Assembly: GCF_016026235.1 (NCBI RefSeq)
Contig: NZ_CP065613.1
DNA length: 64,000 nucleotides
Origin: Escherichia coli
GTDB taxonomy: Bacteria; Pseudomonadota; Gammaproteobacteria; Enterobacterales; Enterobacteriaceae
Direction: 5' to 3' (one strand)
Made by a program: the position numbers. Positions 6,001 to 24,000 of the stretch are shown here, one piece after another (position 1 is the first letter of the stretch; each line of letters opens with the position of its first letter).

Positions 6001-9000
6001 GCAGTTGTTGTAGCGGGTTTTCTCGCTGATGATCATCAGTAACCAGTTCGATACTATCGCCGTGCTCTTCGCGCCACTCATCGTAGGAGAAGAGCTGGCT
6101 GTTATTGGTGTCGAGCAACATTTGGCGATAGTCGGCAATATCGATCCCTAAACGTTCCGCTACCTCAGTTTCCGTGGCGTTGCGGCCAAGTTCCTGCTCC
6201 AGTTGCCCTATTGCCTGTGCCACTTCACGCGCGTTGCGTCGCACGCTGCGCGGCACCCAGTCACGGCTGCGAAGTTCATCCAGCATAGCGCCACGGATAC
6301 GCTGCACTGCGTAAGTTGTAAATGCCGTTCCTTGTAGGGCGTCATAGCGTTCGACGGCATTAAGTAACCCAATGCCGCCCGCCTGTAGCAGATCGTCAAG
6401 TTCCACGCTCGCGGGCAGTCGAACCTGCAGGCGCAATGCTTCGTGACGCACCAGCGGGACATAACGCTGCCACAGCGAGTGTTTATCCATTACACCTTCA
6501 GCGGTATAGAGTGAATTCACGATAAACAGCCCTGCGTTATATGAGTTATCGGCATGATTATCCGTTTCTGCAGGGTTTTTAATCGGACGATTAGTGGGTG
6601 AAATGAGGGGTTATTTGGGGGTTACCGGTAAATTGCGGACAGAAAAAAACCCGCCGGTGGCGGGGGATCACGTTGCTGACAAATTACCATTCATGTTGCC
6701 GGATGCGGCGTAAACGCCTTATCCGGCCTACAAAAATGTGCAAATTCAATAAATTGCAATTCACCTTGTAGGCCTGATAAGCGCAGCGCATCAGGCAATT
6801 TGGCGTTGCCGTCAGTCTCAGTTAATCAGGTTACGACGATTAACCCTGCAGCAGAGACAGAACCTGCTGCGGTACCTGGTTAGCTTTTGCCAGCACGGAG
6901 TTACCGGCCTGCTGGATGATCTGCGCTTTCGACATGTTGGACACTTCGGTCGCATAGTCGGCGTCCTGAATACGGGACTGCGCTTCAGACAGGTTGGTAG
7001 TGGTGTTGTTCAGGTTGGTGACCGCAGAATCCAGACGGTTTTGAACCGCACCGAGGGAGGAGCGGAATTTGTCGATGGAGCTGATGGCTTCGTCCAGAGC
7101 TTTCAGAGGGTCAGTGGTTGCTTCAGACTTGGTAGTTGCATCTTTAGTGATGGAACCATCAGCAGCTTTATAGACAGTAGAACCTTCACCGTCAGAAACT
7201 TTACCATCAGCAAAACCGTAGTAGGTCGTGGTAACGGTTTCATCATCTTCAGTCGTCAGTGCGCCAGTGGTATCTTTATACACATTTACGCCACCTGTCT
7301 GAACTGCGTCTGAGGTTACGGCATAAGCCTTACCGCCTACGTTGGCTGTATAGGAACCATTAATTAAGGTTGATGCCATTGCATCAGCAGAAATAGACGC
7401 GCCTTTAAAGTCAACAGTGCCAGCACCTTCGTCGAATTTAGCTGTCATGCCGCTATCGAAAGTGATCGTTGCATCCTGAGCACCAGCAGCAAACAATTTA
7501 TCTACAGTTGCTTTATCAGCAGAAGTCAGATTCGCGGTATTTTTGGTCAAGTTACCGGTGTCATCGAGGTACAGAGCATCGCCATTGGTATCGGTGATGG
7601 AGCCATCTTTGGCGATGTTAACTTCTTGCTCGGTACCACCAATATTAATTTTACCGGTGTTAGATGCACCTAAGTAGCCTTTCAGTGCCGTCGCGGCATC
7701 CGTGCTGACAACGCCAATAGCATCAAAGGTGTAAGACTTATTCGCTGCATTGTAGGTATAAGTCGAGGCATCAGCAGCGACGCCTAAGCCAGTATCAGTG
7801 CCCGCATAGGTAATGCTATCGCCAGCCGCCGCTTTGCCCAATACATCAGCCGCTGTCGCTGTGTCGAACTTGGTAACGGTGTCTTTCGTATAAGTGATTT
7901 TGCCATTAGCATCGGCTGCGCTTGCCGTGAAACCAGCATCAGTAAGATCTTTGCCAGTCGCCTTGGCATTATCAACAGAGCCAGCACCATTCACGTTAAA
8001 CCCTGTCAGATTCAGCGTATCAGAGTCAATTTTCTTCAGATCAATAGTAATTGTTTCACCATCATTTGCACCCACCTGAATTTTCATTGAACCGTCTTTA
8101 GACAGCACGTTCACGCCGTTGAACTGGGTCTGACCAGATACGCGGTCAATTTCGTCAAGACGGGATTTGATTTCGTCCTGGATGGAGTCCAGGTCAGAAT
8201 CGGAGTTAGTCCCTGTAGTGGCCTGAACCGTCAGTTCACGAATACGCTGTAAGTTGTTGTTGATTTCGGACAGCGCGCCTTCAGTGGTCTGTGCAACGGA
8301 GATACCGTCGTTGGCGTTACGTGCAGCCTGAGTCAGGCCTTTAATGTTAGAAGTAAAACGGTTAGCAATCGCCTGACCTGCGGCGTCATCCTTCGCGCTG
8401 TTAATACGCAAGCCAGAAGACAGACGCTCGATAGAACTCGACAGCGCAGACTGGTTCTTGTTGATATTATTTTGAGTGATCAGCGAGAGGCTGTTGGTAT
8501 TAATGACTTGTGCCATGATTCGTTATCCTATATTGCAAGTCGTTGATTACGTATTGGGTTTCCACCCGTCGGCTCAATCGCCGTCAACCCTGTTATCGTC
8601 TGTCGTAAAACAACCTTTAGAATTTTTTTCACAAACAGCCATTTTTTGTTAGTCGCCGAAATACTCTTTTCTCTGCCCCTTATTCCCGCTATTAAAAAAA
8701 ACAATTAAACGTAAACTTTGCGCAATTCAGGCCGATAACCCCGGTATTCGTTTTACGTGTCGAAAGATAAAAGGAAATCGCATGGCAAGTATTTCATCGC
8801 TGGGAGTCGGGTCAGGTCTGGATTTAAGTTCAATCCTCGATAGCCTCACCGCCGCGCAAAAAGCGACGCTAACCCCTATTTCAAATCAGCAATCGTCGTT
8901 TACCGCTAAACTTAGCGCCTACGGTACGCTGAAAAGCGCGCTGACGACTTTCCAGACCGCCAATACTGCATTGTCTAAAGCCGATCTTTTTTCCGCCACC

Positions 9001-21000: not shown

Positions 21001-24000
21001 CCTATGCCACGCGCATTGCCGAAGATTTTCGCGATCGTGGTCAGCATGTGTTGCTGATTATGGACTCCCTCACCCGCTACGCGATGGCCCAGCGTGAGAT
21101 TGCGCTGGCGATTGGCGAACCGCCTGCCACCAAAGGTTATCCACCGTCGGTATTCGCCAAATTACCGGCGCTGGTCGAGCGTGCCGGTAACGGTATCAGC
21201 GGCGGCGGCTCAATTACGGCGTTTTATACCGTGCTCACCGAAGGCGATGACCAGCAGGACCCGATTGCCGACTCCGCACGGGCGATCCTCGACGGTCACA
21301 TTGTTCTTTCTCGTCGTCTGGCGGAAGCCGGACACTATCCGGCGATTGATATTGAAGCGTCGATCAGCCGTGCAATGACGGCGTTGATCAGCGAGCAACA
21401 TTACGCGCGAGTGCGCACCTTCAAACAGCTGTTGTCGAGTTTTCAGCGTAACCGCGATCTGGTTAGCGTCGGCGCGTATGCCAAAGGCAGCGATCCAATG
21501 CTCGATAAAGCCATCGCTCTGTGGCCGCAGCTGGAGGGCTATTTGCAACAAGGCATTTTTGAACGCGCGAGCTGGGAAGAGTCTCTCCAGGGGCTGGAGC
21601 GCATATTCCCGACAGTGTGAAAACGCAGGAGATAACGGCAGATGGCAGAACATGGCGCGCTGGCGACCCTGAAAGATCTGGCAGAAAAAGAGGTAGAAGA
21701 TGCCGCGCGCCTGCTGGGTGAAATGCGTCGCGGATGCCAGCAGGCAGAGGAACAACTCAAAATGCTGATCGATTATCAGAATGAATATCGCAATAACCTC
21801 AACAGCGATATGAGTGTCGGGATGACCAGTAACCGCTGGATCAACTATCAGCAGTTTATCCAGACGCTGGAAAAAGCCATTACTCAGCATCGCCAGCAAC
21901 TTAATCAGTGGACGCAGAAAGTTGACATTGCCCTGAACAGCTGGCGAGAAAAGAAACAACGTTTGCAGGCCTGGCAGACACTGCAGGAACGGCAATCCAC
22001 GGCGGCACTGCTTGCAGAAAACCGTCTCGATCAGAAAAAGATGGATGAGTTCGCCCAACGCGCCACCATGAGGAAACCCGAATGATTCGCTTAGCGCCCT
22101 TGATTACCGCTGACGTTGACACCGCCATATTGCCCGGCGGTAAAGCCAGCGATGTTACACAAGATTTTCTCGCATTGTTGAGCGGAGCATTAGCAGGTGA
22201 AACAACAACCGACAAAGCGGCCCCCCAGTTGCTGGTGGCAACAGAGAAGCCCACAACAAAAGGCGAGCCGCTGGTTAGCGATATTCTTTCAGATGTGCAA
22301 CAAGCGGATTTACTGATCCCTGAGGATGAAATACCGCCTGTCATCAACGACGAACAATCCACATCAACACCGTTAATCACCGCTCAGACGATGACGTTGG
22401 CTGCGGTGGTTGACAAAAATACGACAAAAGACGAAAAAGCGGATGAGCTTAATGAAGACGTCACCGCAAGCCTGAGCGCCCTTTTTGCGATGTTGCCGGG
22501 TTTTGACAATACGCCCAAAGTGGCTGATGCGCCGTCAACCGTGTTACCGACAGAGAAACCAACTCTCTACACAAAACTGACTACGGCGCAATTCACAACC
22601 GCACAGCCCGATGACGCCCCCGACGCGCAAGCTCAGCCAGTAACACCGCTGGTAGCAGAGGCCCAGAGTAAAGCGGAAGTCATCAGCACACCTTCGCCGG
22701 TGACCGCTGCCGTCAGCCCGCTCATCACTCCGCACCAGACACAGCCGCTGCCCACCGTCGCAGCACCTGTTTTGAGTGCGCCGCTGGGTTCTCACGAATG
22801 GCAACAATCATTAAGCCAGCATATTTCGCTGTTTACCCGCCAGGGGCAACAAAGTGCAGAGTTGCGTCTGCACCCGCAGGATTTAGGTGAAGTACAAATC
22901 TCCCTCAAAGTGGATGATAGCCAGGCGCAAATCCAGATGGTGTCACCGCATCAGCACGTACGCGCCGCGCTGGAAGCTGCGCTACCGGTACTGCGTACGC
23001 AGCTGGCAGAAAGTGGCATTCAGTTAGGGCAAAGCAACATCAGTGGCGAAAGCTTTAGTGGTCAGCAACAGGCCGCTTCACAGCAACAGCAAAGCCAGCG
23101 CACAGCAAATCATGAACCTCTGGCGGGTGAAGACGACGATGCGCTACCCGTTCCCGTCTCTTTACAAGGGCGCGTAACAGGCAACAGTGGCGTTGATATT
23201 TTCGCCTAACGTCAGAGGTAGCACCGTAATCCGCGTCTTTTCCCCGCTTTGTTGCGTTCAAGACGCAGGATAATTAGCCGATAAGCAGTAGCGACACAGG
23301 AAGACCGCAACACATGACTGATTACGCGATAAGCAAGAAAAGCAAGCGATCGCTTTGGATCCCGATTCTGGTATTCATTACCCTCGCGGCCTGTGCCAGC
23401 GCAGGTTACAGCTACTGGCATTCGCATCAGGTTGCCGCTGACGACAAAGCGCAGCAACGCGTCGTGCCCTCCCCGGTCTTCTATGCGCTGGATACCTTTA
23501 CGGTCAATCTGGGCGATGCAGATCGCGTACTTTATATCGGCATAACCCTGCGCCTGAAAGATGAAGCTACCCGCTCGCGGCTGAGTGAGTATTTGCCGGA
23601 AGTCCGTAGCCGTTTGCTGTTACTGTTTTCGCGTCAGGATGCTGCCGTACTGGCGACAGAAGAAGGCAAGAAAAACCTGATTGCCGAGATTAAAACCACG
23701 CTTTCCACCCCGCTTGTTGCCGGGCAACCGAAACAGGATGTCACCGACGTGCTGTATACCGCTTTTATTCTGCGATAACGACATGGGCGATAGTATTCTT
23801 TCTCAAGCTGAAATTGATGCGCTGTTGAATGGTGACAGCGAAGTCAAAGACGAACCGACAGCCAGTGTTAGCGGCGAAAGTGACATTCGTCCGTACGATC
23901 CGAATACCCAACGACGGGTTGTGCGCGAACGTTTGCAGGCGCTGGAAATCATTAATGAGCGCTTTGCCCGCCATTTTCGTATGGGGCTGTTCAACCTGCT

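Follow-up and report, generated by a model that had tools for sequence, protein, structure and literature searches.

The sigma-28-type octamers upstream of fliA and fliL are very probably the -10 elements of FliA promoters that overlap the class 2 promoters (sigma-70 with FlhDC activation) of the fliAZ-tcyJ and fliLMNOPQR operons. The window analyzed (64,000 nt of Escherichia coli contig NZ_CP065613.1) contains flagellar region III of E. coli. Dual control of fliA and fliL is already known, and is textbook material rather than a new finding. The two sites are not equivalent, however; the fliA site has cross-genus conservation and strong binding both in vivo and in vitro, whereas the fliL site is weakly bound.

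Exact copies of GCCGATAA are present upstream of both genes as the initial annotation reported, although both of its positions were shifted by one base; the fliA octamer, placed at 6547-6554, is at 6546-6553 (minus strand), and the fliL octamer, placed at 23276-23283, is at 23277-23284 (plus strand; Table 1). The distance to the start codon is 25 nt for fliA (GTG at 6520) and 29 nt for fliL (ATG at 23314). There are eight exact copies of the octamer in the window compared to 2.23 expected, a number reached in none of 100 shuffles, and three of the eight (at fliA, fliD, and fliL) are in the sense orientation no more than 60 nt upstream of a flagellar gene start; a rough Poisson estimate for these three placements is P ~8e-5. 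On the basis of this enrichment and the placement near flagellar starts, we rejected the explanation that the octamers are chance matches. We also checked whether the regulon is broken, and the IS1 insertion in fliR of the nearest strain is absent from the window.

Table 1. Features of the fliA and fliL promoter regions, in window coordinates.
Feature	Position	Strand	Basis
fliA CDS (sigma-28), GTG start	5801..6520	-	ORF list and nearest-strain annotation
Predicted sigma-28 TSS, fliA	6536..6540	-	18-22 bp downstream of motif centre; motif 6545-6572
fliA sigma-28 -10 element GCCGATAA	6546..6553	-	Exact match; next base C at 6545
Published fliA TSS (class 2, sigma-70/FlhDC), within sigma-28 octamer	6550	-	Kim et al. 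2012 supplement
fliA class 2 sigma-70-type -10 hexamer GATAAT, within sigma-28 spacer	6557..6562	-	Read from sequence
fliA octamer at sigma-28 -35 position, TGCAGAAA	6565..6572	-	3/8 to TAAAGTTT, 11-nt spacing, PWM 1.1 bits
FlhDC box, fliA class 2 promoter	6581..6624	-	Reverse complement of fliA box, PMC9962212 Table 1
fliC/FliX intrinsic terminator	6641..6664	-	Stem 6664-6650 then T-run (terminator scan)
Inferred FlhDC box, fliL class 2 promoter	23208..23251	+	Strongly conserved block, 64 Enterobacteriaceae sequences; begins in fliK stop codon
fliL octamer at sigma-28 -35 position, TCAAGACG	23258..23265	+	4/8 to TAAAGTTT, 11-nt spacing, PWM 3.1 bits
fliL class 2 sigma-70-type -10 hexamer GATAAT, within sigma-28 spacer	23269..23274	+	Read from sequence
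fliL sigma-28 -10 element GCCGATAA	23277..23284	+	Exact match; next base G
Predicted sigma-28 TSS, fliL	23290..23294	+	18-22 bp downstream of motif centre
fliL CDS	23314..23778	+	ORF list and annotation

Both dual promoters share a precise overlapping layout, with a 44-bp FlhDC box followed by 17-18 bp, the GATAAT hexamer, 2-3 bp, and GCCGATAA. Each has the features of a class 2 promoter, in which an FlhDC box (an imperfect palindrome of ~44 bp) abuts the -35 region, with a sigma-70 -10 and no functional -35; neither site yielded a call for a complete sigma-70 promoter with a -35, which is the expectation where transcription depends on an activator. The inferred fliL box is a loose fit to AAYGSSNNAAATAGCG-N10-12-CGCTATTTNNSSCRTT. 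A MEME-derived fliL box described in a gSELEX study (PMC9962212) falls inside the fliL coding region, and the conserved upstream block is preferred. Peaks of FlhDC in ChIP experiments are ~24 bp (fliA) and ~28 bp (fliL) upstream of the FliA motif centres, and deletion of flhD or flhC reduces fliA RNA from 1257 to 1-2 and fliL RNA from 509 to 1-2 (PMC4183435). The fliC/FliX terminator separates fliA from fliC read-through.

The published fliA transcription start (NC_000913.2 position 1999843, with a 30 nt 5′ UTR and an upstream sequence ending ...GATAATCATGCCG; Kim et al. 2012 supplement) is 7 nt downstream of GATAAT. FliA-dependent starts are 18-22 bp downstream of the motif centre (10.1101/188474), and the sigma-28 starts in Table 1 are predicted on this basis; a leader from the predicted fliL start would keep the Shine-Dalgarno sequence AGGAAG at 23298-23303. 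Sigma-28 transcription from both sites was reported by Liu & Matsumura (1996), as cited in PMC4183435. A simple model is that RNA polymerase with sigma-70, recruited by FlhDC, would start inside the octamer, as is seen for fliA at 6550, and that the sigma-28 holoenzyme would use the same octamer as its -10 and start ~10-13 nt further downstream.

The -10 halves score 14.5 bits at fliA, which is the maximum, and 11.7 bits at fliL, using a position weight matrix (PWM) derived from 48 other published FliA sites, and both have the GC extended -10 and CGATAA core of a sigma-28 -10 element. The initial annotation saw no convincing -35 partner at either site, and we agree; the octamers at the -35 positions match TAAAGTTT at only three (fliA) and four (fliL) of eight positions and score 1.1 and 3.1 bits, and spacers of 10 or 12 nt provide no better -35 at either. 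The -35 halves of classical class 3 promoters score 7-9 bits with the same PWM. A search for TAAAGTTT-N11-GCCGATAA with up to three mismatches recovers fliC and fliD only, and thus neither fliA nor fliL can be found as a full-consensus promoter; by PWM the fliL site ranks 12th in the window, beneath several unbound intragenic matches. A strong -35 is typical but not obligatory, because ves and yafY, which are bound and FliA-dependent, score as low (-1.4 and 0.1, respectively; same published table, same PWM). The fliA -35-position octamer is conserved as TG[C/T]AGAAA in four other genera, and that of fliL varies within Escherichia (TTAAGACG and TCAGGACG). The -35s are probably weak because they are located between the FlhDC box and the sigma-70 -10, in positions that could not be optimised for both polymerases. 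As a minor possibility, the fliA site may be a largely -35-independent sigma-28 promoter that owes its strength to a perfect extended -10 and to an upstream A-tract (6576-6580) resembling an UP element.

The 28-mers at fliA and fliL are base-for-base identical to the K-12 motif instances identified by FliA ChIP-seq (Fitzgerald et al.), in which peaks are centred on these motifs with FAT values of 91 for fliAZY and 18 for fliLMNOPQR (PMC4183435 Table 2). The same study describes the two as complex promoters reported previously (citing Liu & Matsumura 1996) and supports this with its own data; with the identity of the bound sites, this bears out the suggestion in the initial annotation of dual class 2 and class 3 control. 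In vitro, the highest genome-wide binding peak of reconstituted sigma-28 holoenzyme alone is at the fliA promoter (Shimada 2017, PMC5493296). Overexpression of fliA in an flhD deletion raises RNA for all of the dual-regulated targets tested, with the smallest effect at fliL (PMC4183435), and deletion of fliA leaves the level of fliL RNA unaltered (989 vs 980; PMC4183435 Table 2). The RNA of the fliA operon falls from 1257 to 15 in the same deletion (PMC4183435), which is uninformative because fliA itself is deleted. When the FliA promoters of fliA, fliD, and fliL were fused to reporters, expression did not depend on FliA, a result that the authors ascribe to swamping from upstream class 2 promoters (10.1101/188474). 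A literature search with the octamer string together with fliA and fliL returned no matches, and Zhao 2007 and the Salmonella ChIP-exo paper contain nothing on sigma-28 promoters of fliA or fliL.

An exact sigma-28 -10 octamer is not sufficient to predict FliA binding, because four other exact copies of GCCGATAA in the region are identical in K-12 and are absent from the 52 ChIP peaks. The caution in the initial annotation that these are only half-sites by sequence was therefore fair.

The two sites differ markedly in conservation. At fliA, 5353 of 5379 E. coli genomes have an identical 41-mer, and the octamer is invariant in Salmonella, Enterobacter, Pluralibacter, and Pseudocitrobacter; in Yersinia GATAAT is kept and the sigma-28 octamer is lost. 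For the corresponding fliL 41-mer, an identical copy (K-12 allele) is present in 5092 of 5171 E. coli genomes. The octamer itself does not vary in more than 99% of the E. coli genomes carrying the region, and E. albertii, E. whittamii, and cryptic clades retain it as well. Among 64 Enterobacteriaceae fliL sequences (58 from outside Escherichia, with no Salmonella sequence among them), it is present beyond Escherichia in only three of the 58, all Citrobacter amalonaticus, whereas GATAAT is kept in 55 of the 58 (mean per-position identity 0.98); the Enterobacter-type sequence at the octamer position is CCGTATTA. These counts agree with the published report that the fliL FliA promoter lacks conservation and is unbound in S. 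Typhimurium (10.1101/188474). Conservation of the octamer at fliA and not at fliL identifies fliA as a conserved autoregulatory sigma-28 promoter, and fliL stays classed as a FliA-bound, lineage-restricted promoter because conservation is supporting evidence and not a defining feature.

It is quite possible, if somewhat short of probable, that the fliL octamer is a neutral FliA site that was born by drift, like many intragenic ones, and persists in Escherichia through recent common ancestry only. In the view of the Wade laboratory, drift gives rise to a continuum of FliA sites, and the narrow distribution of the octamer, the weak ChIP signal, and the lack of a FliA-dependent change in fliL RNA are all consistent with it. 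This explanation fits less well with a -10 that matches the consensus exactly and is correctly oriented, 29 nt from the fliL start codon, with its near invariance in E. coli and its retention in the other Escherichia lineages named above, and with the older report of sigma-28 transcription from the site (Liu & Matsumura 1996, via the citing paper).

A second explanation, which we consider doubtful, is that the fliL octamer is a non-activating site at which the FliA holoenzyme occludes the FlhDC/sigma-70 promoter, and the fliL operon would thereby be under negative feedback at high levels of free FliA. The sigma-70 -10 ends 2 nt before the octamer, which spans the expected sigma-70 start (~23281), but the effect was observed solely with overexpression, and fliA, with the same geometry, is associated with positive control. 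In addition, the site is missing in most genera that otherwise retain the fliL promoter, and occlusion feedback is therefore not a general design feature of fliL. That both octamers are conserved only as the start and initially transcribed regions of the class 2 sigma-70 promoters, with an incidental likeness to a sigma-28 -10, is highly improbable and has been largely refuted by the ChIP-seq and genomic SELEX data in the literature. The fliA sigma-70 start is indeed inside the octamer and the neighbouring FlhDC box and GATAAT are the most conserved parts, but FliA peaks are centred on both motifs, and no other genomic site is bound as well as the fliA promoter by the sigma-28 holoenzyme alone in vitro. 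The FlhDC box and GATAAT also persist where the octamer is lacking, in Yersinia and in most fliL orthologues, showing that sigma-70 function is independent of it.

Window positions 6624-6500, which include both the FlhDC box and the start codon, are identical to the K-12 fliAZY complex promoter (class 2 FlhDC/sigma-70 and class 3 sigma-28), and the 28-nt FliA motif TGCAGAAACGGATAATCATGCCGATAAC and transcription start context are the same; there are no promoter differences, and the departures are in the upstream fliC 3′ UTR/FliX region and the fliC allele. The K-12 fliLMNOPQR Class 2/3 promoter likewise has the same 28-nt FliA motif TCAAGACGCAGGATAATTAGCCGATAAG, GATAAT, FlhDC block, and leader as the window, with a single departure just upstream of the motif at 23257, where the window has T and K-12 and ~98% of E. 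coli genomes have C. Canonical class 3 promoters (fliC, tar, motA, tsr, and fliD in the window) share with fliA and fliL the GCCGATAA-type -10, 11-nt spacer, orientation, and proximity to flagellar genes, but they have a strong TAAAGTTT-like -35 (7-9 bits vs 1-3 bits) and no overlapping FlhDC/sigma-70 promoter, and deletion of fliA makes their RNAs collapse but not that of fliL. The weak and intragenic FliA sites (Fitzgerald 2014/2018; Plitnick 2020) resemble fliA and fliL in combining a degenerate -35 with a near-consensus -10, and fliL in particular in their poor cross-species conservation and lack of a detectable effect on stable RNA. They differ in that the fliA and fliL sites are located between genes, at the correct position upstream of flagellar operons, and fliA is among the strongest FliA sites both in vivo and in vitro.

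At fliA, the sigma-28 element would provide positive autoregulation after FlgM export and is under selection across the Enterobacteriaceae. At fliL, the FliA holoenzyme is bound with little or no net FliA-dependent transcription, and this lineage-restricted site may be repressive; it could be nearly neutral, or could repress mildly by competing with the sigma-70 promoter that it overlaps. It seems unlikely that the Escherichia-specific fliL octamer is a recently evolved negative-feedback device, in which FliA holoenzyme parked at a -10 that overlaps the start and has a crippled -35 blocks the FlhDC/sigma-70 promoter. If this were true, feedback at fliL would shut off production of C-ring and export-gate proteins upon completion of the hook-basal bodies. 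As discoveries the two promoters carry little weight, having been in the literature since 1996 and mapped genome-wide in 2014. Their opposite evolutionary behaviour favours a view of fliA autoregulation as conserved within the flagellar network, and of the sigma-28 input at fliL as a peculiarity of Escherichia whose function is uncertain.

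The octamer GCCGATAA, an exact sigma-28 (FliA) -10 motif, occurs eight times in the window, compared with 2.23 copies expected, a count not attained in any of 100 shuffles. The initial annotation had reported exact copies upstream of fliA and fliL; both are present, although its positions are shifted by one base at each site. Its description of an exact -10 with no convincing -35 is accurate, because the segments at the canonical 11-nt spacing, TGCAGAAA for fliA and TCAAGACG for fliL, match the TAAAGTTT consensus at 3/8 and 4/8 positions respectively, and a search of the window for the full sigma-28 consensus with ≤3 mismatches finds fliC and fliD only, without recovering fliA or fliL. 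The octamer alone is not predictive of FliA binding, and the caution that these are only half-sites by sequence was therefore justified: none of the K-12-identical copies in dcyD, fliZ, yedE and fliN is among the 52 published K-12 FliA ChIP-seq peaks (PMC4183435).

Features of the fliA and fliL control regions, their FliA PWM scores, and other exact octamers in the window
Feature	Position	Strand	Sequence	Remarks
FlhDC box, fliA	6624-6581	minus		identical to fliA entry of PMC9962212 Table 1
FlhDC box, fliL (inferred)	23208-23251	plus		strongly conserved block under FlhDC ChIP peak
Box to -35 position, fliA	6580-6573	minus	AAAAACCC	
Box to -35 position, fliL	23252-23257	plus	TTGCGT	
Weak sigma-28 -35 position, fliA	6572-6565	minus	TGCAGAAA	
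Weak sigma-28 -35 position, fliL	23258-23265	plus	TCAAGACG	
Sigma-70 -10, fliA	6562-6557	minus	GATAAT	
Sigma-70 -10, fliL	23269-23274	plus	GATAAT	
GATAAT-to-octamer gap, fliA			CAT	3 nt
GATAAT-to-octamer gap, fliL			TA	2 nt
Octamer, fliA	6546-6553	minus	GCCGATAA	25 nt upstream of fliA GTG at 6520
Octamer, fliL	23277-23284	plus	GCCGATAA	29 nt upstream of fliL ATG at 23314
PWM score, fliA site				16.7 bits, 2nd in window; -10 half 14.5 bits (maximum), -35 half 1.1 bits
PWM score, fliL site				12.4 bits, 12th in window; -10 half 11.7 bits, -35 half 3.1 bits
Octamer in dcyD	4164-4171	plus	GCCGATAA	antisense; identical in K-12
Octamer in fliZ	5483-5490	plus	GCCGATAA	antisense; identical in K-12
Octamer in yedE	14328-14335	minus	GCCGATAA	antisense; identical in K-12
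Octamer in fliN	25126-25133	plus	GCCGATAA	sense; identical in K-12
Octamer in ybtS	49889-49896	minus	GCCGATAA	sense

The fliA and fliL control regions have one common layout, with the class 2 sigma-70-type hexamer GATAAT inside the sigma-28 spacer. The sigma-28 -35 octamers lie between the FlhDC box and this hexamer, and plausibly cannot approach TAAAGTTT for that reason. At neither site did a simple sigma-70 scan call a promoter that includes a -35, consistent with activator-dependent promoters. The FlhDC box given for fliL in a 2023 genomic SELEX paper (PMC9962212, Table 1; MEME) falls within the fliL coding sequence at ~23440-23485(+); because that box is intragenic, and the FlhDC ChIP peak covers the conserved block 23208-23251, the assignment looks wrong for the fliL operon. 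The fliA TSS mapped by Kim et al. (2012) to NC_000913.2 1999843, with a 30-nt leader and upstream sequence ending ...GATAATCATGCCG, corresponds to window position 6550, which is 7 nt past GATAAT and inside the octamer, and is therefore the sigma-70 class 2 start. FliA starts are typically 18–22 bp downstream of the motif centre (10.1101/188474), so sigma-28 starts are predicted near 6536-6540 (fliA) and 23290-23294 (fliL), and the Shine-Dalgarno sequences would stay in the leader from both. FliA-dependent 5′ ends at fliA and fliL are credited by later papers to Liu & Matsumura (1996).

The 28-mers at 6545-6572(-) and 23258-23285(+) have every base as in K-12 and both appear among the FliA motifs listed by Fitzgerald et al. 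(2014; PMC4183435, Table 2), which supports the proposal of dual class 2 / class 3 control. The fliAZY motif TGCAGAAACGGATAATCATGCCGATAAC is among the strongest FliA ChIP-seq sites with a fold-above-threshold (FAT) of 91, and the fliLMNOPQR motif TCAAGACGCAGGATAATTAGCCGATAAG has a FAT of 18 (PMC4183435). In genomic SELEX with only reconstituted sigma-28 holoenzyme, the fliA (rpoF) promoter is the highest peak genome-wide (46-fold); fliL is not mentioned in the main text (Shimada et al. 2017, PMC5493296). For a PWM scan of the whole window, the matrix was derived from the 48 published FliA ChIP-seq motif instances other than those of fliA and fliL; several intragenic matches outscore the fliL site. 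The top match is the fliD class 3 promoter at 8712-8739(+) (23.2 bits), where this strain carries a perfect GCCGATAA and K-12 has ACCGATAA. The yedE-antisense octamer scores 15.8 bits, nearly equal to the fliA promoter, and a sense-strand FliA-like motif within fliN, TAAATATGGCGTGCGGATCACCGATATC at 25131-25158(+), scores 15.2 bits with a reasonable -35; its K-12 copy is identical, and FliA binding has not been reported for it.

FliA overexpression in a flhD deletion raised RNA for all dual-regulated targets tested, fliL the least; with FliA overexpressed in a fliA deletion fliL RNA fell 2.1-fold, and in the fliA deletion it was unchanged, 989 vs 980 (PMC4183435). Melamed et al. (2023) call fliL "a representative Class 2/3 promoter". 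When the FliA promoters of fliA, fliD and fliL were fused to a reporter, expression did not depend on FliA; the authors put this down to the strong FlhDC-activated promoters lying directly upstream (10.1101/188474).

Of 5379 complete E. coli genomes, 5353 carry the fliA 41-mer unchanged, and the K-12 allele of the fliL 41-mer is found unchanged in 5092 of 5171 E. coli genomes. From 6624 down to the fliA start the window is identical to K-12; in its fliL 41-mer the single difference from K-12 is at 23257, one base beyond the motif. In a small cross-genus fliA sample of eight loci, CGGATAAT-N3-GCCGATAAC is intact in Salmonella, Enterobacter, Pluralibacter and Pseudocitrobacter, all with a similarly weak -35 (TG[C/T]AGAAA or TCCAGAAT); it is degenerate in Entomohabitans and one further genome, and absent from Yersinia and a Klebsiella aerogenes locus, where the FlhDC box and sigma-70 -10 alone are kept. 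A cross-genus fliL set recovered 67 loci, none from Salmonella. Here GCCGATAAG is found at the same distance to the ATG in E. albertii, E. whittamii, cryptic Escherichia clades and Citrobacter amalonaticus, and the octamer position otherwise reads GCCCATAA, CCGTATTA, CCCCATAA, ACCGATAA and similar. Of the 58 sequences from outside Escherichia, three have an intact octamer and 55 an intact GATAAT; the FlhDC block and Shine-Dalgarno sequence are likewise highly conserved. Enterobacter, Pluralibacter and Pseudocitrobacter have a perfect fliA octamer and a decayed fliL octamer, reproducing the conclusion of 10.1101/188474 that core flagellar FliA promoters are all conserved except fliL; in S. Typhimurium fliL is not FliA-bound (10.1101/188474).

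The window covers flagellar region III of E. coli, in the gene order tcyJ-fliZ-fliA and fliC (minus strand), then fliDST, fliE / fliFGHIJK and fliLMNOPQR. Among sequenced strains FDAARGOS_943 is the nearest; K-12 is ~97% identical. In FDAARGOS_943, IS1 has inserted into fliR and also downstream of rcsA (window ~27220-27232 and ~28271-28280); neither is present in the window, and fliR is therefore intact here. The yedN/intG pseudogene remnant found between yedL and fliE in K-12 is missing, and the fliC allele differs from that of K-12. The K-12 FliX sRNA corresponds to the fliC 3′UTR at ~6641-6837(-), between the fliC stop codon and the fliA promoter, which contains REP-like repeats and a terminator at 6664-6650 and differs from K-12 by small indels and substitutions. 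Directly downstream of yedL, the nearest strain's RefSeq annotation has an 18-codon 'cyclic lactone autoinducer peptide' ORF at ~16007-16063(+) (L001 13208-13264), an odd annotation for E. coli. A yersiniabactin high-pathogenicity island (ybtS, ybtX, ybtQ, ybtP, ybtA, irp2, irp1) occupies ~44000-64000, its integrase adjoining a tRNA-Asn gene.

At fliL, FliA holoenzyme has a real binding site, arranged as at fliA, but this site produces little transcript and is restricted to one lineage. It may be near-neutral, or it may repress mildly through competition with the sigma-70 promoter that it overlaps, a speculation of Fitzgerald et al. (PMC4183435). The idea that the octamers are mere sigma-70 start-site sequence fails against the FliA ChIP-seq data and the in-vitro binding data, and also because many orthologous promoters lack the octamer yet retain both the FlhDC box and GATAAT. 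Both dual promoters are already known in detail in K-12, with identical sequence. The fliA site, which is conserved and overlaps the class 2 promoter, very probably functions as a sigma-28 promoter; its perfect composite -10 probably accounts for its strength despite a near-background -35, and, more speculatively, the A-tract upstream may add to it. Once FlgM is exported, this promoter would give FliA positive autoregulation.
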